From NCBI GenBank assembly GCA_041743795.1, contig JBGTMF010000623.1:11851-75850 (forward strand): a stretch of 64,000 nt of DNA, read 5' to 3'. The translations under genes were made by a program, and so were the position numbers. The notes under the pieces are model-generated. The model made no database searches, was not told where the DNA came from, and saw only the letters and a program-made list of their open reading frames with translations. Origin of the DNA: Thermodesulfobacteriota bacterium (GTDB lineage: Bacteria; Desulfobacterota; Binatia; HRBIN30; CADEER01). This document shows positions 35,565 through 48,775 of the stretch, piece after piece. Positions within the stretch are counted from its first letter, which is position 1. The number at the start of each line of letters is the position of its first letter.

Positions 35565-36770
35565 TCACTTACTCTTCGCCATCCCAAGTACCCGCTCGCC
35601 GAGAATGTTGCGCTGGATCTCGCTGGTACCGGCGGCGATCGTCATGCCGAAGGAGTTGAGATAGGCTAACGGCCAGTCGCCGCCGTGCGGAGCGCGCTCG
35701 TCCTGCACGTAAAGTGAGCCGTGCGCGCCGGTGATCTCGAGTCCGACCGCCGCGGCATCCTGCATCAGCTCGGTCATCAAAACCTTGCCTTGTAACGGCA
35801 AGCGCATGGGATGATCGACCAGGCCCTCGACGCGACCGCGACGCGCCATCTGGCGTAGGCCGGCGGCGCGAATGGCGATCTGCACGATGCGGTCGCGCAG
35901 CACCGCGTCATCCCAAGCGGTTGCCCTGCCGCGCGGCGTCTTCTTGGCGAGTTCGATGAGTCCGTCGATGCGACCTTCGATGCCGGCGCCGCCGCCGCTG
36001 CCGGCGCCTTCGGCCGCGCCGCGCTCGTGCAGAAGCGTCGTCATTGCCACCGTCCAGCCCTTGCCGACATCGTCGAGGCGCATGGCGTCGGGAATGACGA
36101 CATCCTCGAACAACACCTCGTTGAAGCCGGTGCCGCCGGTGATCTTGATCAGCGGGCGCACGGTGACGCCGGGAGTATCGGCGACCGGGGTGATGAAATA
36201 CGTCAGTCCTTTGTACTTGTCCTCGTTGCTGTGGCGAGCGAGGATGATCATCCACTTGGCAAAGGTTGCGAGGCTGGTCCAGACCTTGTGGCCGTTGAGG
36301 ATCCAGTTGTCGCCATCGCGCACCGCCGATGTCTTGGCGCTGGCCAGATCGCTGCCGGCGCCCGGCTCGGAAAAGCCCTGGCACCAGATTTCGTCGGCGG
36401 CGAAGAGTGGCGGCAGGTAGTTCCGCTTCTGCTCCTCGGTGCCGTGGTGCAGGATCGTCGGCGCCGCCATGCCGAGTCCGATTACGTTGATCAGGAACGG
36501 TACCTGGGCGCGGCCCATCTCCTGGTTGGCGATGCGCTGGAAGCCGTCATGGCCACCGCCGCCGTACTCGCTCGGGTAATCGCAGGCGACGAGACCGGCC
36601 TCATAACACTTTCTCTGCCAAGCACAGAGGTACTCGCGGTGCTCCTCGCTGGAGACTTCGATCGCCAACTCGGGGAGGCGTGTGCGCGGCGGCGCCGGTC
36701 GGTTCTCGTCCAGCCAGCGCCGGCAGTGTTCACGAAAATCGGCCTGTTCCGGCGTGTCCTTCTTCGCCAT
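35565..36770 (-). CDS. Acyl-CoA dehydrogenase
   Basis: MAKKDTPEQADFREHCRRWL...CQGFSEPGAGSDLAS...: ACAD middle beta-barrel and C-terminal helical domain. ATG inside the listed ORF. Confidence 0.85.
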   Translation of the reverse strand: MAKKDTPEQADFREHCRRWLDENRPAPPRTRLPELAIEVSSEEHREYLCAWQRKCYEAGLVACDYPSEYGGGGHDGFQRIANQEMGRAQVPFLINVIGLGMAAPTILHHGTEEQKRNYLPPLFAADEIWCQGFSEPGAGSDLASAKTSAVRDGDNWILNGHKVWTSLATFAKWMIILARHSNEDKYKGLTYFITPVADTPGVTVRPLIKITGGTGFNEVLFEDVVIPDAMRLDDVGKGWTVAMTTLLHERGAAEGAGSGGGAGIEGRIDGLIELAKKTPRGRATAWDDAVLRDRIVQIAIRAAGLRQMARRGRVEGLVDHPMRLPLQGKVLMTELMQDAAAVGLEITGAHGSLYVQDERAPHGGDWPLAYLNSFGMTIAAGTSEIQRNILGERVLGMAKSK

Positions 36771-36850
36771 CGTTCGAGACTCCTGAAGTTCTGTTGGAAG
36801 TGAAATGGGTACCGCGGATGAACGCCGCACAAGGCTGTTGCCGATTGCGA

Positions 36851-37543
36851 ATGTCAATTGTAAGCGTTAGCCCGGTGCGCCCGAGCATCGACTACATGTG
36901 GCGGCATCTCTGGGGAAAACCCGACCGACACCCAAACCCGTACGCGACCCATCTACCGCTGCTCGTCGGGCTCGGTCAAGGCGTGCGTATCCGACGTGTT
37001 CTCGAACTCGGTGCCGGCGCCTACAGCACGGGCCAGCTCTTGAGTCGGGAGATATTCCCGCATCTGCAGGCGCTCGACTCCCATGACGACGATGCATCGT
37101 GGGTAAGTACCGTTGCGGCCATGGCAGAGGGAGACCGGCGCCTGCGGCTCCATACCTGCGCTACCTCAGTTGCGGAGGCCGTTGAGGAGATGGACATCGA
37201 CGGCTACGACCTGATCTTCATCGACGATTCACGTAGCGAGGACGCACGCGTGCGGACCATCAGGGCGATCGCGGCGAAACGGCCCCCCGGCATCGTGGTG
37301 ATTCACGACTTCGAGATCGAGAGCTACCGCCGCGCGGCTGCGGCATTCGAGAACCGATACTGGTTCAAAGCGCTCAATCCCAACTGCGGCATCCTGTGGA
37401 ACGCTTTTTCCCTCGATGTCGGAGGACTGGAACGGATCTCCAGGATCGTCCGTCTCCGCCCGTGGATCTTGCCCACGGACGATCAGCGCTGGCGCCGGCT
37501 GTTCTCCGGAATCTCCCTTCGCGCGGAACCGCCAAGGCGCTGA
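36851..37543 (+). CDS. Class I SAM-dependent (O-)methyltransferase-like protein (TylF/OMT family-3-like)
   Basis: Motif I VLELGAGAYSTG and the downstream DLIFIDDSRSEDARVRTIRAIAAKRPPGIVVIHDF, resembling DxxFIDAD...LRPGGxIVxDD of family-3 O-MTases. Start is ambiguous (36818 or 36851). Confidence 0.5.
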   Translation: MSIVSVSPVRPSIDYMWRHLWGKPDRHPNPYATHLPLLVGLGQGVRIRRVLELGAGAYSTGQLLSREIFPHLQALDSHDDDASWVSTVAAMAEGDRRLRLHTCATSVAEAVEEMDIDGYDLIFIDDSRSEDARVRTIRAIAAKRPPGIVVIHDFEIESYRRAAAAFENRYWFKALNPNCGILWNAFSLDVGGLERISRIVRLRPWILPTDDQRWRRLFSGISLRAEPPRR

Positions 37544-37825
37544 GACACGGGCCGCGGCCTGTGCCTACACGTCCTACGAAGCCCGAAGGGCGAAGGAAGA
37601 TGCCCCTGCCGACCTGTCCTCCGAAGCTCGAAGATGCGAAGGGGGATGCCTACGAGCAAAACGAGTTTCAAGCTAGGTACATCTCCGGAGTTGCGTCCAC
37701 TTCTCCTTTCGCTAGACAACCTTTGCCCCGCTGCTGTCCGGCATGTGCGCACCTGTTAGCAGGCCGGCCGAGGTCGAGAATGGGCGGGGGGAGTCAGTTG
37801 CTTCAAACTCTATTGTGAGGACGCC

Positions 37826-40800
37826 ATGTCGAGGGAACGCTCTACCCGGATTCTGGTCAAGCTTCGCGCGACCACGTCACTTCGGGCAGCCGAGTCGCGG
37901 GCTAACCTGCGACCGCTGTACGACGCGACGGCGGAGGAGGACAGCGCTGTGTCACCGCTTGGCGTTGCGCCGCCTGGCCAAAGCCGCGGCAATGCGCCGC
38001 GCTGGTATCTCGCGGATGTGCCCGACGGCCGCGACAATCCCTGGGATCTCGCGCATGCGCGCCTCGCCGATCAACTCGGCGTCGCTGAATCGGACGTCTT
38101 GTTTGCCGAGCCTGACCTGATCCAACCGGTTCAAAAGGACCCGTTCAATCGCGAGGCCCAGGGACTTCCGCTCGGAGAGGAATGCACTGAGTGCACGCAG
38201 GAGGATGGTGGCGGACGGGCGAAGGGCCCAGATACCTTCGCTTGGCATCTCGGCGACGATTTCACGCAGCTGAAACGCGCGCGCGAGGAGGTGGAGTTCA
38301 CGGATCGCCGCACGCGCATTGCGCACTTCGACACCGGCTACTATCGCGACCACGTCACCCTGCCGAAACACATCCGCACGGATCTGGAACGTAACTTCGC
38401 GGATGGGGATGAGGACTCGGCCGACGACCCGGGCAAACGTCGCTTGCTGCTCGATAACGCGGGACATGGCACGGGTACGTTGTCGATCCTTGCGGGCGGA
38501 CGCTACCCACGTGCCGGGGGCGAGTACATGGGAGCCGCACCTGGCGCGGATGTGGTGCCGATCCGGGTCGCAAGAAGCGTCATACTGCTGCGCACGAGCG
38601 CCTTTGCACGGGCGCTCGACTACGCTCGCACGCACGACTGCGATGTCGTGGCGATGAGCATGGGCGGGCTTCCCTCGAACGCCTGGAAAGAAGCGGTCGA
38701 CGATGCCTATCTCGCAGGGGTCTGCATCGTCTCGGCCGCCGGCAACAACTATAGCGGAGTTCTTACAAGGAACATTGTGTATCCGGCTCGCTACGGTCGG
38801 GTGATCGCCGTCGTCGGTGTCATGGCCGATGGCCGACCCTACGCAGACCTCGATTTCCGCACGATGGAAGGAAATCACGGTCCATCATCGAAGATGAGCA
38901 GCGCGATTGCAGCCTATACACCGAACATTCCGTGGGCTCGATTCGGCTGCCCCGAGATCGTGCGGTTGAACGGTGAGGGCACCTCCGCTGCGACACCGCA
39001 GGTCGCGGCCGCCGCGGCGCTGTGGCTGGAGAAGTACAAGGGAGTGCTGCGACCCGACTGGAGGCGCGTCGAGGCAGTGCGCCACGCGCTCTTCAGCAAG
39101 GCGCGCGGGACAAATTCCGACCGATCTCGGCTGGGCAATGGGATTCTCCGGGCGCATGCGGCGCTCGCCGTCGAGCCCGATCTTGAGCGCCGGCAGACCA
39201 AATCGGATAGCGACTGGCTCCCTGCCCTTCGAGTGATCACCGGTCTCGGCGTAGCCGAACCGCCGCCGCGAGAGCGGATGTTCAATCTGGAGTTTGCCCA
39301 ACGCTGGCTCTTGAACCCAGCGCTGCAAGCGCTCCTGCCGGATCCCGATGCCGACAGGCCGGTCGACGAGAGGGCATTGCGCGCCCTGATGGAGGCGGTG
39401 ATCGAGGACAGTGACGCGTCGCTGGCGCTGCGGCGACAGGTTGTCGCCCGTTACCCGTTGGTCACGGGCCGAATGGTCCCGACGGGCAAAGCGCCGGCGG
39501 ACGTCGTTCCGCCGGTGCTGGCGGTCACCGAATCGACCGCGCCGCCGCGACTGGTTCCCCCGGCACAGCGGCGCGTGCGGGTGTACGCAGTGGACCCCAG
39601 CTTCTCGACAAAGCTCGATTCGGCGAGCGCCAATGACGTGCGACTTAATGTGCGGTGGGAAAAACTGGCGCCGGGCCCTGTCGGCGAGTACCTCGAGGTA
39701 AGCGATGTCGATGCACTCGGCAACCGCCACGCGCCAGTCGATCTCAATGCCCCTGAGTTACTCGCGCAAGACGGATGGGCGCCGTCCGAAGGGAATCCGC
39801 AGTTCCATCAGCAGATGGTGTACGCCGTGGCGATGAAGACGATCGAACACTTCGAGCGCGCGCTCGGCCGGCCGGTGCTCTGGCGCCCGCGGCCGTCGCC
39901 GAAGCGGCCGAATGACGATAGCCAGTTCGTGCGCCGGCTCGCCGTGCACCCGCACGCGATCCGTCACGCCAATGCGTTCTACAGTCCTCAGGACGTCGCG
40001 CTCCAGTTCGGCTACTTCGAGGCGCCGAGTCATGACCCGGGTGAACTCGTCCCCGGAAGCCGTATCTACGCTTGCCTCTCGCACGACATCATCGCCCACG
40101 AGACGACGCACGCAGTCTTGGACGGGATGCACCGGCGGTTCACGGAGCCCTCCAATCTGGATGTGCTGGCGTTCCACGAGGCGTTCGCCGACATCATCGC
40201 GCTCATGCAGCACTTCACGATCCCCGAGATTCTGGAACGGGAGATCGCCCGGTCGCGCGGCGACCTCGAGAGCGAGTCCATTCTGGGTAGCCTCGCGGTG
40301 CAATTCGGCCGCGCGGTCGGGGGCCACGCTGCCTTGCGGGACGCCATCGGTCGCGTAGAGAACGGTGTGTGGCAGCGCTTTGCTGCTGATGCCACGGAGC
40401 TGGCGCGGCGTGAAACGCCGCATGCCCGTGGAGCCATACTGGTCGCGGCGGTCTTCGACGCGTTCCTGGCGATCTACCGCACGCGGAGCGCTGACCTTCT
40501 CCGCCTCTATACGGCGGGGACCGGCGTGCTGCCGAACGGCGCCATCCACCCGGACCTCGTGCAGCGTCTTGCGCGAGAGGCTGCGACGTCGGCCCGGCAC
40601 GTACTCGGTATTTGCATCCGTGCCCTCGACTATCTCCCTCCGGTCGACGTGACATTCTTCGAGTATCTGCGCGCGTTGATCACGGCTGACTTCGACGTGG
40701 TCGCGGAGGATCCCTTGAACTACCGGGTTGCCTTCGTCGAGGCATTTCGTCGCCGCGGGATCTATCCCGTGGACATGGGCTCTGTCGACGCGGACACGCC

Positions 40801-41410
40801 GCGAACCCTCGCGCCAGACACATTGCGGTGGAAGGGACTGGACGAGGCTGATCTGAGCGCAGCGGCACGCGTGCGGATCGAACAGCAGTACGCGGCGATG
40901 ATCAGCGGGCTCAAGGAACACGCCACCGCCTGCATCTATCTTCGCGACCGCGAGGCGCTCTTCGACGCGACGCGGGCGCAGCGTAGATCGCTGCACGGGC
41001 AACTCGCGGCGTCATTCGCAGAGTCTGAGGAATTTTGTAACTGGCTCGGACTCGTTCCAAAGCGATCCTTCGAGGTGCACGAGCTTCGCTGCGCGCTACG
41101 TAGTCGACCCGACGGTACGACGGCGCCGCAGATCGTGATCGCGCTGACACAGTCGATGCGGATCAAGAGAAATGCGAAGACGGGTGCGCCGGCGCACCAT
41201 TTCCTGGGTGGCTCTACGCTTCTCGTCGACCTCGTGGCGCCGCGTGTCAGCTACCGCATCGTCAAACGCATCTCGAGTGTGGATCGCCAGGCGCGGACCG
41301 CGGCGTTCGTGCGGCAGACCGCCGCCGATCCATTGCGTGCCCTATTCTATTCGCCGGACCGAAAAGAACCGTTTGCCGCGCTTCACGCGCTCGGGGAGGC
41401 GGGGGTGTAG
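37826..41410 (+). CDS. 1194-aa fusion protein: subtilisin-like S8 peptidase domain + thermolysin-like (HExxH...E) metallopeptidase domain, no signal peptide
   Basis: S8 catalytic triad contexts IAHFDTGY (Asp), AGHGTGTLSI (His), NGEGTSAATPQVAAAAAL (Ser). C-terminal half has IIAHETTHAVLDG...(23 aa)...FHEAFADII, matching the M4 gluzincin HExxH + NEAxSD arrangement. GGAGG-like RBS 5 nt before the ATG. N-terminus is not a Sec/Tat signal. Confidence 0.8.
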   Translation: MSRERSTRILVKLRATTSLRAAESRANLRPLYDATAEEDSAVSPLGVAPPGQSRGNAPRWYLADVPDGRDNPWDLAHARLADQLGVAESDVLFAEPDLIQPVQKDPFNREAQGLPLGEECTECTQEDGGGRAKGPDTFAWHLGDDFTQLKRAREEVEFTDRRTRIAHFDTGYYRDHVTLPKHIRTDLERNFADGDEDSADDPGKRRLLLDNAGHGTGTLSILAGGRYPRAGGEYMGAAPGADVVPIRVARSVILLRTSAFARALDYARTHDCDVVAMSMGGLPSNAWKEAVDDAYLAGVCIVSAAGNNYSGVLTRNIVYPARYGRVIAVVGVMADGRPYADLDFRTMEGNHGPSSKMSSAIAAYTPNIPWARFGCPEIVRLNGEGTSAATPQVAAAAALWLEKYKGVLRPDWRRVEAVRHALFSKARGTNSDRSRLGNGILRAHAALAVEPDLERRQTKSDSDWLPALRVITGLGVAEPPPRERMFNLEFAQRWLLNPALQALLPDPDADRPVDERALRALMEAVIEDSDASLALRRQVVARYPLVTGRMVPTGKAPADVVPPVLAVTESTAPPRLVPPAQRRVRVYAVDPSFSTKLDSASANDVRLNVRWEKLAPGPVGEYLEVSDVDALGNRHAPVDLNAPELLAQDGWAPSEGNPQFHQQMVYAVAMKTIEHFERALGRPVLWRPRPSPKRPNDDSQFVRRLAVHPHAIRHANAFYSPQDVALQFGYFEAPSHDPGELVPGSRIYACLSHDIIAHETTHAVLDGMHRRFTEPSNLDVLAFHEAFADIIALMQHFTIPEILEREIARSRGDLESESILGSLAVQFGRAVGGHAALRDAIGRVENGVWQRFAADATELARRETPHARGAILVAAVFDAFLAIYRTRSADLLRLYTAGTGVLPNGAIHPDLVQRLAREAATSARHVLGICIRALDYLPPVDVTFFEYLRALITADFDVVAEDPLNYRVAFVEAFRRRGIYPVDMGSVDADTPRTLAPDTLRWKGLDEADLSAAARVRIEQQYAAMISGLKEHATACIYLRDREALFDATRAQRRSLHGQLAASFAESEEFCNWLGLVPKRSFEVHELRCALRSRPDGTTAPQIVIALTQSMRIKRNAKTGAPAHHFLGGSTLLVDLVAPRVSYRIVKRISSVDRQARTAAFVRQTAADPLRALFYSPDRKEPFAALHALGEAGV

Positions 41411-41484
41411 CGCTCAGCCCGCTTGGGGCTTTGCAGGGATTCGCGCAGATCCCTCTGGATTCGGGATCGAAAATTCAGGATTCT

Positions 41485-42333
41485 ATGCAGATTGTGCTCG
41501 ACCCCGAGATCAGATCCAGATTGCGCTACGTGCGGGCCAACGGCTCCGAGGACTTGGCGCTGTTTCCCGATTTCCTCATCGTCGGACCGCAGCGCACCGG
41601 TACGACGTGGCTGCACGCGCATCTTCGCTTCCACCCGCAGATCATGCTCTCCGAGCCGAAGGAGATCTTCTATTTCAACCGGTTGAAGGATCCCAACCAC
41701 CCACGCTTCGAATCAGCCGACCTTTCCTGGTACCTCGATCATTTCCGCGAGCCATGGGCTCGGCGCTGTGCCAAGACGGCAATCGCGCTATGGCGCTTCC
41801 GCGAGTTCTACCGCCCGGTGGTGCGCGGCGAAGCGACCGCCAGTTACGCCGCCATGGAGCCCGACCTGATCGACGAGGTGGTGTCCCTGAAGGCGGACGT
41901 GCGCGTCATCATGATGATACGCGATCCCGTAGATCGGGCCTGGTCACACGCCAAGAAGGATCTCGTTCGCAAGACCGGCCGCCGCGTCGATCAGGTGCCG
42001 GCGGAGGAGTTTCGCGAGTTCTTTCGCGACGAATACCAGGTGAGCTGCGGCCGCTATGTGCGCAATCACGACAACTGGCAGTCTCGCCTGCGCCCCGGAC
42101 ACCTATACGTAGGTGCCTTCGAAGAGATTACCCGTCGACCTCACGAAATGATGCTCGAAGTCATGTCGTTTCTCGGCGTGCGCAGCGATCCACACTACAT
42201 CAGTGCCGATGTGCGCGAGGAAGTGAATCCGACCGCCAAGTCGAGCGTTCCGGCGGAGTATCGCGCTTACCTGGAGGACCTCTTCGACGACGAGATCGCG
42301 TCCCTGGAGGCCCGCTTCGGCTACCGCCGATAG
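41485..42333 (+). CDS. Sulfotransferase-family protein
   Basis: 5'-PSB motif FLIVGPQRTGTTWLH and 3'-PB-like region (IMMIRDPVDRAWSH). ATG at 41485 with a CAGGA RBS. The listed ORF start at 41431 is TTG. Confidence 0.75.
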   Translation: MQIVLDPEIRSRLRYVRANGSEDLALFPDFLIVGPQRTGTTWLHAHLRFHPQIMLSEPKEIFYFNRLKDPNHPRFESADLSWYLDHFREPWARRCAKTAIALWRFREFYRPVVRGEATASYAAMEPDLIDEVVSLKADVRVIMMIRDPVDRAWSHAKKDLVRKTGRRVDQVPAEEFREFFRDEYQVSCGRYVRNHDNWQSRLRPGHLYVGAFEEITRRPHEMMLEVMSFLGVRSDPHYISADVREEVNPTAKSSVPAEYRAYLEDLFDDEIASLEARFGYRR

Positions 42334-45837: not shown

Positions 45838-46036
45838 AACGAATTTGAGATGCCAAGCCGAGCGACGTTGCGATCGGAGGAACCGCGTTTCTCGACCTGC
45901 GCCAAGGGCACCTCGCTTTGCTGTGGCAAAAGCCTGACCGCATCGGTAGAGGTGGAAGACCCCCCTATTTGATCTATTGATGGCGCATCCTCCAACCCCC
46001 ACTCCTTCAGGCCCATTCCCGCGCGGTTCCCACCTT

Positions 46037-48775
46037 ATGGTGGGAGTTCGCGTCCGACCTGCGATTCGCCTCGCCGCTCTCGTCGCGGCGTTCGTTTCGA
46101 TGTCGGCGGGAAATGCGGTGAGCGGGCCGGTGCCGTCGTGCACATTCTATGTCCGCGCTGGTTTTGTCCCCGCTGGCGGAATGGTTGCGGACGGCGCGGC
46201 GCCGCGAACCGCCTTCCCGACGATCGGAGATGCGGCGCAAGCGCTGCGCAATTGGGGCGACGTCGTCTGTGTCGGCCCAGGCGTCTACGTCGAAAGGGAC
46301 ATCACGCCGCGGCGCTCCGGCATCGCGAGCCAGCCGATCGTCTTTCGCGCGGATCCGAGCGGGCAGAGCACGCAAGATCCCCCTGGACCGGTGCGCCTGG
46401 TATCGCCCCCACCCGGTGGCGTCTCGCTCCCGGCGGGCTTTCGCGTGCTCGGGCAGAGCCACCTCGTGATCGAGGGTTTCACCATGGAGGGGTACGAAGA
46501 TCCGGCGATTCAGGTCCGCTCGGCCGTGGGCACCCCCGGTAACAGCACCGACGTCACGATCCGCAACAACAGAATTCGACAGGTCGTTCGCACCGGTATC
46601 GACGTCACCGCGGAGGGCGTCATCGTCATTGAGGGCAACCACGTAATCGGCGCCGGTGGCAGTGGAATTTCCGTGCAGAGCTGCGTCGGCGCTCTGCCGT
46701 TCGGTGATCCGAACGCATCGCCGGTTTGCCGCGGTGGGCCGAGTGATGAGGTGCAGCCGATCATCGACAGCAACCGCGTCGGCATCAACTACGGCCACGG
46801 CATTTTCGTGCGCGACGCAAGTTTCGGAGTAATTCAGAACAACGTCGTTTACAGCAATGAGTTCACCGGGATCACGTTGCGCAACGCTCCCGATTTCACC
46901 GTTGTCAACAACCTCGTCTACGACAACCTCGACCAAGGTCTAGCCGCCGGCACGAACGATCTGCCGTCGCCGCGCCTGAAGGTAGTCAACAACACATTCT
47001 ACCGCAATTTCGACTGGGGCATTCTCATCGGAAGTGGAAATGTTGCGTCCGAAGGGGCCATGGTCGTCAACAATATCTTGATGCTCAACAGTAACGGCGC
47101 AAAAGGGATTGGCGTGCCCAATGAGTCCGGCTCGGACCCGCGCTCGACCTGCGGTTACGTCGCAGGCTTCAACGTTACGGCGGACGCCTACGGACTCGAT
47201 ACTCCTTTCAATGTGTACGATTTCGCCGGCGACCCGCAGTTCGCCGGCGCAGTCGAGGGGGCGGACGGTGTGCTGGGGGGCTATCGCGACGGCAGTGAGA
47301 TCGTCGACGGATCGGCCGACGACAGCTTCACCCTGCGACAGCCGGGTGCACCGCCGGTGAGCCGCGCCGTCGACGCCGGGTATGCCGCGGTTGAAGACGT
47401 CGGGATCTTCGGCTCGACAGCTCCTGACGGCCGGCCCGATACGGGCATACTCGACGCCGGCTACCACTACGGGGTCGAACCCGGCATGGTCCCCGTATTC
47501 CCGACTCCTTTCATGCCGGTGTTCGTCCGACTCGGCGGCAACAATTCCAGCAACGGCAAGTCCCCCAACGTGGCGATTGCCAGCATCAAGGTCGCCGCAT
47601 TGCGGGCCCGCGCTGGGGTGACGATTGTCGTCGGGCCAGGCGTCTACCGCGAGTGCCAGATCAAACCGCCGCCGGACATGGGACGCGCAATTTTCCAGGC
47701 GGACCCCGAGGGGGTGCTGACCGGTGACTCGCCGGGCCATGTGGTCGTTGACGCCGGTTGCTGCGAGATCAATCCCGTTGGGAACCACTGCCGCCCGGGG
47801 GATGACGGCTTCAACATTCCCAATTCCTGTAACGTCGTCGTCGACGGCTTCTATGTCCGCGGTGCGCACGAGAGCGGCATCATGATCCAGACCGGATCGC
47901 ACGGTGCCGAGGTCCGCAACAATGTGACCTTCTCCAGCGACAGGCGCGGCATCGGCGTCATCGACGCGCATGACGTGCGCATCTTCAACAATCTCGTTTA
48001 CGACAACCTCGGTGGCGGTATCCAAGTCGGCGGCGGTGTCTGCAGGGCTGGCGCCGATTGTTCGCTACTCGGATCGCGTCGTGTGCTGATCGAGAACAAC
48101 ACTTGCTACGCCAATGGAGTCAATGGAATCCTGATTGGCTCCGGTCCCGGCCACTCGACCTATGCCACCGTCCGCTACAACATCATGCACGTTGGAATGG
48201 GGGAGGGACTTCCTCCCGGCCGCAACGGTATTCAACTCGGCAGCAACACCACTCTGCAGAATCACCTCGAAGGCTATACTGCATACTTCAACATCAATTT
48301 CGAAGGGCGCTACGGCGGATCGACACCGCGACCGCCGAGCGACCGCGAGGACGATCCGCTGTTCGTGCTTCCCGCCGGTCCCGACGGCATTCTCGGCGGC
48401 AGCGGTTTCGCCGACGACCGCTTTCAGCTGTCCCAACGAGCCGCCGGGCAATTGGTCGATAGCCCTGGGGTCGACGTCGGTGACATCACCGCCGAGGCTT
48501 TACTCCTCGACACACGAACGACGCGTACCGACCTGGTAACAGATCACGGCCAGCTGGATCTCGGTTTCCACTACCCGCTGTACGTCCCGCGCGTGGTCGG
48601 CGACTGCAACGACGACGGCATCGTCACCGTCAGCGAATTGGTGCGCGCGGTGAGCATCGCCCTCGGGCGGATCCCGCTGGAGCGGTGCCCCAACGTGGAT
48701 GCGAACGGCGATGGCTCGGTCAGCATCGCCGAGCTTACCCTGGCCGTACGCAGCGCCCTCTTCAGCTTTCGCTAG
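46037..48775 (+). CDS. Secreted right-handed parallel beta-helix repeat protein with C-terminal dockerin-like module
   Basis: Signal peptide (MVGVRVRPAIRLAALVAAFVSMSAGNA). Many PbH1-type repeats (NNxIxxNxxxGIxL/V: IRNNRIRQV, VIQNNVVYSNEFTGITL, VVNNLVYDNLDQGL, FNNLVYDNLGGGIQV, IENNTCYANGVNGILI). C-terminal duplicated DxNxDGxVxxxE loops (GDCNDDGIVTVSELV / DANGDGSVSIAELT). Confidence 0.7.
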   Translation: MVGVRVRPAIRLAALVAAFVSMSAGNAVSGPVPSCTFYVRAGFVPAGGMVADGAAPRTAFPTIGDAAQALRNWGDVVCVGPGVYVERDITPRRSGIASQPIVFRADPSGQSTQDPPGPVRLVSPPPGGVSLPAGFRVLGQSHLVIEGFTMEGYEDPAIQVRSAVGTPGNSTDVTIRNNRIRQVVRTGIDVTAEGVIVIEGNHVIGAGGSGISVQSCVGALPFGDPNASPVCRGGPSDEVQPIIDSNRVGINYGHGIFVRDASFGVIQNNVVYSNEFTGITLRNAPDFTVVNNLVYDNLDQGLAAGTNDLPSPRLKVVNNTFYRNFDWGILIGSGNVASEGAMVVNNILMLNSNGAKGIGVPNESGSDPRSTCGYVAGFNVTADAYGLDTPFNVYDFAGDPQFAGAVEGADGVLGGYRDGSEIVDGSADDSFTLRQPGAPPVSRAVDAGYAAVEDVGIFGSTAPDGRPDTGILDAGYHYGVEPGMVPVFPTPFMPVFVRLGGNNSSNGKSPNVAIASIKVAALRARAGVTIVVGPGVYRECQIKPPPDMGRAIFQADPEGVLTGDSPGHVVVDAGCCEINPVGNHCRPGDDGFNIPNSCNVVVDGFYVRGAHESGIMIQTGSHGAEVRNNVTFSSDRRGIGVIDAHDVRIFNNLVYDNLGGGIQVGGGVCRAGADCSLLGSRRVLIENNTCYANGVNGILIGSGPGHSTYATVRYNIMHVGMGEGLPPGRNGIQLGSNTTLQNHLEGYTAYFNINFEGRYGGSTPRPPSDREDDPLFVLPAGPDGILGGSGFADDRFQLSQRAAGQLVDSPGVDVGDITAEALLLDTRTTRTDLVTDHGQLDLGFHYPLYVPRVVGDCNDDGIVTVSELVRAVSIALGRIPLERCPNVDANGDGSVSIAELTLAVRSALFSFR

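Follow-up and report, generated by a model that had tools for sequence, protein, structure and literature searches.

A predicted cytoplasmic subtilisin-metalloprotease fusion in a Thermodesulfobacteriota genome is a candidate latent, defence-type protease from a family linked to metallo-β-lactamase-fold nucleases

The DNA analysed here, called the window throughout, is a stretch of 64,000 nucleotides from a Thermodesulfobacteriota bacterium (assembly GCA_041743795.1, contig JBGTMF010000623.1, positions 11,851 to 75,850 of the forward strand). At 37826-41410 on its plus strand lies a gene for a protein of 1194 amino acids, the fusion protein, in which an I9-like prodomain, an S8 subtilase, an all-helical domain, a thermolysin-like zincin and a C-terminal domain (CTD) follow one another. 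It is preceded by a methyltransferase-like (MTase-like) open reading frame (ORF; 36851-37543, +) and followed by a sulfotransferase gene (41431 or 41485 to 42333, +). The initial annotation, which rightly noted that both flanking genes are present and co-directional with the protease gene, read the three as an operon and offered two roles for it, protease-based defence or toxin activation on the one hand and the tailoring of a modified peptide or glycoconjugate on the other. The fusion protein proved to be a member of a large family and not a one-off, and it is within this family that we discuss what it may do.

The fusion ORF starts with ATG, the first start codon past the upstream stop. Among 5.8 billion proteins searched, 1,796 matched its product, and the best 120 of these are collinear with it, 1155-1231 amino acids long and 61-67% identical, and come from several phyla including Acidobacteriota, Gemmatimonadota and Desulfobacterota. 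Because these best 120 homologues are collinear over their full length, an artefact in which a sequencing frameshift had joined two genes, raised as a concern at the outset, is ruled out and the 1194-amino-acid ORF can be taken as real. A pseudo-protease, the other concern, was rejected because the catalytic residues of both sites are invariant or nearly so. This was read from an alignment (A1) of 120 homologues from clade A, the group that holds the fusion protein and whose sister is the metallo-β-lactamase (MBL) clade described below, and the site check was extended to 183 sequences from three architectures. No signal peptide, twin-arginine (Tat) motif or transmembrane segment was found in the fusion protein, the Kyte-Doolittle maximum over a 19-residue window being 1.5 for the whole protein and 0.1 for its first 40 residues. 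The earlier description of two protease sites in one apparently cytoplasmic polypeptide, with no Sec or Tat signal, therefore holds, and both sites are strongly conserved. The full-length AlphaFold (AF2) model has a predicted local distance difference test (pLDDT) score of 77 and a predicted template modelling (pTM) score of 0.75. Scans against PADLOC, NCBIfam and PHROGs gave generic subtilase or protease matches only; that in PADLOC was to its generic 'subtilase' model (E=9e-7), and IetS was not matched.

Residues 1-100 (37826-38125, +) adopt a β-α-β...α-β arrangement in the AF2 model, at moderate confidence, and end in DVLFAEPD. Within this end the strand motif V-x-F-A-E-P-D (residues 91-97), which we take to correspond to the consensus of the C-terminal I9 strand, has E95, P96 and D97 invariant and V91, F93 and A94 at least 90% conserved in the 120 homologues. 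In Foldseek the top match of the full-length model was unprocessed pro-subtilisin E (3whi), over 457 columns, about 150 more than the approximately 307 aligned with mature subtilisins. No Pfam I9 match was obtained for residues 1-165 at E<=10; on the strength of the 3whi match and the DVLFAEPD motif, however, the I9-like prodomain proposed initially is plausible. The catalytic domain that follows (residues 136-450; 38231-39175, +) is an S8 subtilase by Pfam and by structure, with pLDDT above 90. PF00082 (Peptidase_S8) matches residues 163-439 with E=2.4e-27 and 96.4 bits (cut-off 21.8), the alignment taking in positions 4-288 of the 288 in the profile, and Foldseek against the PDB aligned the region with subtilisins at E 1e-13 to 1e-11 and a target-normalised TM score of 0.76-0.86. 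The subtilase triad was correctly recognized as complete: D169 (HFDTGY), H214 (HGTGT) and S387 (GTSAATP), together with the oxyanion residue N307, are kept in 119-120 of 120 clade-A sequences and in 35/35 from the MBL clade, the sole catalytic deviation in clade A being one D169E. Two cysteines are also invariant across the 120 homologues, Cys120 (38183-38185) in the linker between prodomain and catalytic domain and Cys375 (38948-38950) in the 'FGC' of the S8 domain, which might act together as a metal or redox switch. Next comes an all-helical domain (residues 466-560; 39221-39505, +), with helices modelled over 466-547 at pLDDT 81-90, that has no Pfam match; it accompanies the S8 domain and is missing from relatives that have none. 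A linker predicted to be disordered (residues 561-605; 39506-39640, +; pLDDT 34-55), where alignment A1 varies most, then separates the S8 half from the zincin half, and stand-alone zincin proteins align with the fusion protein only from about residue 575 on.

The zincin half opens with a predicted thermolysin-like gluzincin domain (residues 606-1000; 39641-40825, +), modelled by AF2 with moderate confidence as a mixed β region and then a helical one with the zinc site. It contains NAFY at 716-719, HETTH at 758-762, HEAFAD and a helical C-terminal subdomain. The glutamate of HEAFAD is E785, exactly 23 residues past H762, and D789 follows; H758, E759, H762, E785 and D789 are invariant in the 183 sequences and align with HELTH...NEAISD of thermolysin, as the initial reading of the zinc site had it. 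Its distance from the subtilase had been put at about 480 residues, whereas the site lies 371 residues past the catalytic serine and 544 past His214. Likewise, of what had been described as about 350 residues of unknown sequence, approximately 215 belong to the thermolysin-like helical subdomain, while the CTD of about 190 residues is indeed without a match.

The relationship to peptidase family M4 is a distant one. PF01447 matches the fusion protein below its cut-off (E=0.32, 11.9 bits against 22.4), and PF02868 does not match it; the PF01447 cut-off is reached in the relatives P0329 (26.3 bits), P0326 (23.6) and P0383 (22.5). When a profile of 45 diverse relatives was searched against all PDB sequences, nine of the ten matches, at weak E-values of 0.056-1, belonged to M4 peptidases, namely neutral protease, thermolysin and aureolysin, and covered HExxH...(N/H)EAxxD, and the tenth was endothelin-converting enzyme 1, an M13 enzyme. 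The clearest alignment came from hhalign, in which the family profiles A3 and A4 were compared with eight bona fide M4 enzymes from plasmid records: this gave Prob 83-87% and E 4e-6 to 1e-5 over 208 columns, from the NAFW strand (here N716-A717-F-Y) across the two helices of the zinc site and up to where the helical subdomain ends. A single-sequence search of the PDB with the C-terminal 714 residues found no match at E<=10. The C-terminal 620 residues modelled alone by AF2 gave a poor model (pLDDT 55), with which Foldseek returned nothing significant (best E=0.13), and the full-length model could not reveal a zincin because all of its best 50 Foldseek matches were to S8 enzymes. The profile comparisons indicate that the second site is probably a remote thermolysin-like gluzincin and not a bona fide M4 member. 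The final part, the CTD (residues 1005-1194; 40838-41407, +), is a well-modelled α/β domain (pLDDT 83-94) of a helical hairpin, a four-stranded sheet and three helices; it found no match in Pfam, the PDB or Foldseek, and is 41-58% identical within clade A and about 30% identical to the CTDs of the MBL clade. P0329 (L092:7001-10372), P0326 and P0383 are S8-less long forms of 1100-1140 residues; they have a Pfam Peptidase_M4 match near the N-terminus (for example at residues 135-186) and the family zincin at about residues 573-952, a layout that points to two thermolysin-like domains in tandem, a second zincin standing where S8 would be. In another relative, the S8-zincin protein P0157 (1498 residues), a glycerophosphodiester phosphodiesterase (GDPD) domain is added at the C-terminus.

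The C-terminal 714 residues, used in a HMMER scan, matched 3,802 clusters (at 50% identity) with E<=1e-3. Many of these are stand-alone proteins of 620-740 residues that begin at about residue 575 of the query, and the long cluster members that were checked carry S8. At least 581 matching stretches occur in a one-genome-per-species collection. The family is spread over Acidobacteriota, Gemmatimonadota, Deinococcota, Desulfobacterota, Proteobacteria, Methylomirabilota and Rhodothermales and is common in soil Acidobacteriota and Proteobacteria; because identity between phyla is as high as 60-65%, horizontal transfer is indicated. To define clades, 171 related loci were gathered from species-representative genomes, metagenomes and look-ups, and a domain census was combined with a neighbour-joining tree of the zincin region. 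Clade A, that of the window, is monophyletic and S8-fused throughout. In its sister clade, 84 loci have an MBL-fold gene directly downstream and in the same orientation; 35 of them are S8-fused, 28 are without S8 and 21 are of undetermined architecture, and at 26 loci measured the gap between zincin and MBL genes is mostly -73 to +52 nt. The constant core of the family is the thermolysin-like zincin with its CTD, which also occurs without S8 and which in most relatives has its gene directly before that of the MBL protein. The MBL partners match defence models from PADLOC better than generic Pfam MBL models (about 1e-5): LmuA at E=1e-12 to 1e-15, RTasMBL at 5e-9 to 1e-5 and Avs1a at 6e-8 to 1e-4. 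No MBL gene was found near clade-A genes in any of approximately 53 loci having at least 2.2 kb of downstream sequence, and no MBL homologue lies within the 64-kb window. Outside clade A only one S8-fused member has no MBL gene within 10 kb downstream, that of the cultured Desulfatitalea alkaliphila M08but (L061), a basal branch of the MBL clade.

Other genes recur upstream of the family. Patatin-like genes, 54-64% identical between loci, lie directly upstream of the zincin or S8-zincin gene (L053, L067, L073, L077, L092, L120, L143-L145 and L170), in all at no fewer than 10 MBL-clade loci and at one clade-A locus, where a patatin-like gene for 966 amino acids (L086/L050, 5067-7967) lies 34 nt upstream. 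Once, at L091 (5501-6940), a phospholipase D (PLD)-family gene takes the patatin position. Patatins and PLD enzymes are typical swappable effectors, and the pattern looks like effector swapping or three-gene systems. Genes for a C11 peptidase and/or a caspase-like TPR-CHAT protein are found at L001 (842-6057) and L091 (1192-4380), a few kilobases before one clade-A gene and one stand-alone zincin-MBL pair, with extracytoplasmic function (ECF) sigma factor genes nearby; this could reflect co-location of different protease-based systems.

The surroundings of the fusion gene in the window point to an insertion. Close relatives of the host were located via the branched-chain aminotransferase, and in one of them (L182) the gene order is transaldolase, two acyl-CoA dehydrogenases (ACADs), sulfotransferase, branched-chain aminotransferase and enoyl-CoA hydratase (ECH). 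The flanking proteins are 75-83% and the sulfotransferase 61% identical to those of the window, and the L182 sulfotransferase gene lies 187 nt from the ACAD gene, with neither protease nor MTase-like ORF present. In L181 the sulfotransferase is 87% identical and again there is no protease; neither of the two syntenic relatives has a homologue of the MTase-like ORF. Since the L182 sulfotransferase directly adjoins the ACAD, window positions of about 36858-41430, comprising the protease gene and the MTase-like ORF (about 4.6 kb), are on gene order an insertion between the ACAD and the sulfotransferase, the latter being a resident gene at its border beside which the protease gene was placed. No direct or inverted repeats flank the insertion borders. 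The sulfotransferase itself was rightly named (PF00685 E=1e-16, PF13469 E=1e-14) and follows the protease gene after 20-75 nt. The O-methyltransferase call fared less well: the ORF has a motif-I-like VLELGAGAYS, but its match to Methyltransf_24 is below threshold (E=6.8e-4, 20.9 bits against a cut-off of 26.3). The exact sequence of this ORF is not in a collection of 15 billion proteins, and perhaps the ORF is not a called gene or its true start lies elsewhere; as drawn, its start overlaps that of the divergent ACAD ORF (35565-36857, -) by 7 nt (36851-36857). Between it and the protease gene are 283 nt with a GC-rich palindrome, AGACACGGGCCGCGGCCTGTGCCT, at 37543-37566, whose first base is the last of the MTase-like stop codon and which lacks a T-run and may mark a transcript boundary within the inserted segment. 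A search for sigma-70-like promoters found none, and sites resembling terminators occurred at background frequency. Beyond the housekeeping block downstream lies an unrelated gene for a right-handed β-helix protein with NosD-like repeats (932 amino acids, 45977-48775).

We propose, with moderate confidence, that the fusion protein is a latent protease of defence type that has no separate effector, its zincin module controlling the pro-subtilisin fused to it in cis. The family as a whole is large and horizontally spread, its two-protease member here is predicted to be cytoplasmic and latent, and clade A appears to have kept the pro-subtilisin and lost the nuclease. In the MBL-linked relatives the metalloprotease is the likeliest enzyme to gate the nuclease, because the zincin with its CTD is the constant partner of the MBL protein and some pairs have no S8; the S8 domain behaves as an optional, swappable module. 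That the pro-subtilisin became the executioner in clade A would be the simplest reading, by analogy with an effector-less caspase-like protease. What we infer beyond this is an antiviral role, a direction for the cascade and its substrates. The zincin and CTD half would be the trigger-responsive or activating protease, and the pro-subtilisin would stand in for the nuclease; upon activation a cut would fall in the I9-like prodomain or the linker, and the freed S8 domain would degrade cellular or viral proteins in an abortive-infection type of response. A bolder version, which we put forward as a tentative and rather doubtful extension, is that the metalloprotease constitutes a fourth class of MBL-gating protease, beside the trypsin-, caspase- and subtilisin-like ones, and that in clade A it gates the cis-fused pro-subtilisin, giving a two-step cascade within a single polypeptide that would kill or arrest the infected cell without a separate effector. 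The suggestion of protease-based defence or toxin activation in the initial annotation fits the family context, given the MBL pro-nucleases of the sister clade.

Several points weigh against this proposal. The 100 nearest neighbours of 36 clade-A loci fall into 115 Pfam families, none present in more than three loci; they are mostly metabolic, with no obvious defence-island signal, and clustering of the neighbours in clade A gave no conserved partner. Toxin-antitoxin (TA) modules, a transposase and CHAT or C11 genes appear in only some clade-A contexts. At a mean column identity of 68% over 120 sequences clade A is unusually conserved for an immune gene, it is without the nuclease that carries the link to defence, and the fusion protein matches the generic subtilase and no defence-specific model in PADLOC. 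In the sister clade the S8 domain could instead activate the MBL protein, with the zincin as a mere sensor, and the assignment of the zincin fold itself comes from sequence profiles, the corresponding part of the AF2 model being only moderately confident.

Another possibility, somewhat less likely in our estimation, is that the fusion protein is a regulated intracellular protease of nuclease-linked ancestry with no part in immunity, serving stress or developmental proteolysis, quality control or the processing of a conserved host substrate. The missing nuclease at every clade-A locus with enough downstream sequence speaks for such an enzyme, as do the heterogeneous, mostly metabolic neighbours, the window gene sitting among genes of fatty-acid and amino-acid metabolism; the high conservation (61-67% identity across phyla, in addition to the column identity above) suggests a conserved substrate and not an arms race. 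However, the patchy distribution across phyla at 60-65% identity and the insertion relative to the syntenic relative mark the gene as accessory and horizontally transferred, patatin effectors and pro-nucleases of the defence type are closely linked to its nearest relatives, and some clade-A contexts do hold TA modules, a transposase or CHAT, C11 or patatin genes. The loss of an MBL gene that is near universal in the sister clade might also mean that clade A is a decaying, non-functional remnant of an S8-zincin and MBL system left after its effector was lost. This is very improbable, as lack of the MBL gene is the mark of a large monophyletic clade over many phyla, in which the genes are intact (1155-1231 amino acids) and the sites near invariant, apart from one D169E in 120 sequences.

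Export has to be considered because secretion is usual among the characterised S8 and M4 enzymes that have prodomains, and the best NCBIfam match of the fusion protein is the mycosin of the type VII secretion system (T7SS), TIGR03921 (E=5e-27); the protein might then be a degradative protease or toxin released by a non-classical route, for example mycosin-like or contact-dependent. We regard this as improbable: the match scores 94.9 bits against a cut-off of 278.75, and identity with a T7SS mycosin was rejected on that score together with the lack of a hydrophobic segment. The protein has no signal peptide, Tat motif or transmembrane anchor, secretion-system genes do not recur beside the family, and the partner in the sister clade is a pro-nuclease of intracellular type. 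Finally, there is scarcely any likelihood that methyltransferase, protease and sulfotransferase form an operon for tailoring and processing a peptide or glycoconjugate that carries methyl or sulfate groups. All three genes do point the same way, the gap between the last two is short and the S8 domain has weak similarity to the NCBIfam maturation proteases PatA/PatG and QhpE, but these matches score 30-36 bits against cut-offs of 165-421, and no precursor-peptide gene or other gene for a ribosomally synthesized and post-translationally modified peptide was seen. A tblastn search of the first 85 related loci, with the two flanking proteins as queries, found nothing except L005, a contig of the same organism, so that no conserved trio was detected there or in L182; sulfotransferase orthologues in the relatives occur without the protease, and next to the ACAD in L182. 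Together with the sub-threshold methyltransferase match and the 283-nt gap with its palindrome, synteny and co-occurrence largely refute the tailoring set and leave the three-gene operon unsupported, and we conclude that neither flanking gene is part of the protease system.

Only recently, in two papers of late 2025 (Tuck et al. 2025; Evans et al. 2025), was it established that proteolytic licensing of death effectors is widespread in bacterial immunity, and the family described here would extend it by a thermolysin-like metalloprotease, a new protease class in constant linkage with a pro-nuclease. In the literature searched the family itself, the metalloprotease-nuclease linkage and the nuclease-less two-protease clade all appear to be undescribed, and annotation pipelines label the proteins 'S8 family serine peptidase' or 'hypothetical protein' only. 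With two different proteases in each chain the fusion is a candidate initiator-executioner pair resembling a caspase cascade, and clade A, with nuclease lost and pro-subtilisin kept, may serve as a natural experiment. If clade A is not immune in function, it would still be an unusual and highly conserved predicted cytosolic dual protease.

Among known enzymes, the second protease shares with peptidase family M4 the NAF(W/Y) substrate strand, the HExxH and ExxxD helices at a spacing of about 20-23 residues and the helical C-terminal subdomain, all within the 208 aligned columns. Protealysins, like the fusion protein, have no signal peptide. Two of the M4 reference peptidases (L174 1357-2893 and L175 1354-3015) are plasmid-borne and protealysin-like, each followed by a gene for an emfourin inhibitor, as is known for intracellular M4 enzymes. 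The fusion protein differs from M4 enzymes in its marginal, sub-threshold similarity (PF01447, 11.9 bits), in the absence of Peptidase_M4_C, FTP and PepSY domains, in an N-terminal β-subdomain that cannot be aligned and in the domains fused on both sides, and its family is linked to an MBL protein and not to emfourin. With pro-subtilisins and intracellular subtilisins (S8A with I9) it has in common the D-H-N-S arrangement, the fold and, as predicted, a β-α-β prodomain ending in an EPD-type motif, unlike them having no secretion signal, a linker of about 40 residues with the invariant Cys120 between prodomain and catalytic domain, and about 750 further residues that include a second protease. 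IetAS, reportedly an anti-phage defence pair of an ATPase and an S8 protease, is similar in its S8 protease, but there is no IetA-like ATPase gene adjacent to the fusion gene and no PADLOC match to IetS.

The closest parallels are the protease-gated MBL modules of Hachiman, Avs, Lamassu, DRT and canu. In Hachiman, Avs and canu, cleavage at specific sites switches gated MBL pro-nucleases on (Tuck et al. 2025, PMC12799240; Evans et al. 2025, bioRxiv 10.1101/2025.11.14.688446), and an uncharacterised MBL 'Clade 3' adjoins S8 subtilisin-like proteases (Evans et al. 2025); neither paper mentions a metalloprotease. The sister-clade MBL proteins resemble these modules in matching the LmuA, RTasMBL and Avs1a hidden Markov models, and the family resembles them in its intact protease sites and its modular, horizontally spread architecture. 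It differs in that the MBL gene is downstream where that of known modules is upstream, in that the constant partner of the MBL protein is a thermolysin-like metalloprotease, a class unreported there, with S8 optional, in the lack of an attached STAND, Hachiman or reverse transcriptase (RT) sensor and, for clade A, in the lack of an MBL gene altogether. In this last respect clade A is closer to an effector-less caspase-like protease that protects alone (Evans et al. 2025, Discussion and Suppl. Fig. 13). The fusion protein combines serine and metallo sites where that enzyme uses cysteine, and has two proteases in one chain as well as an I9-like prodomain. Like the effector-less protease and PCaspase-type executioners it has no dedicated effector, and it may work by cleaving host or phage proteins.

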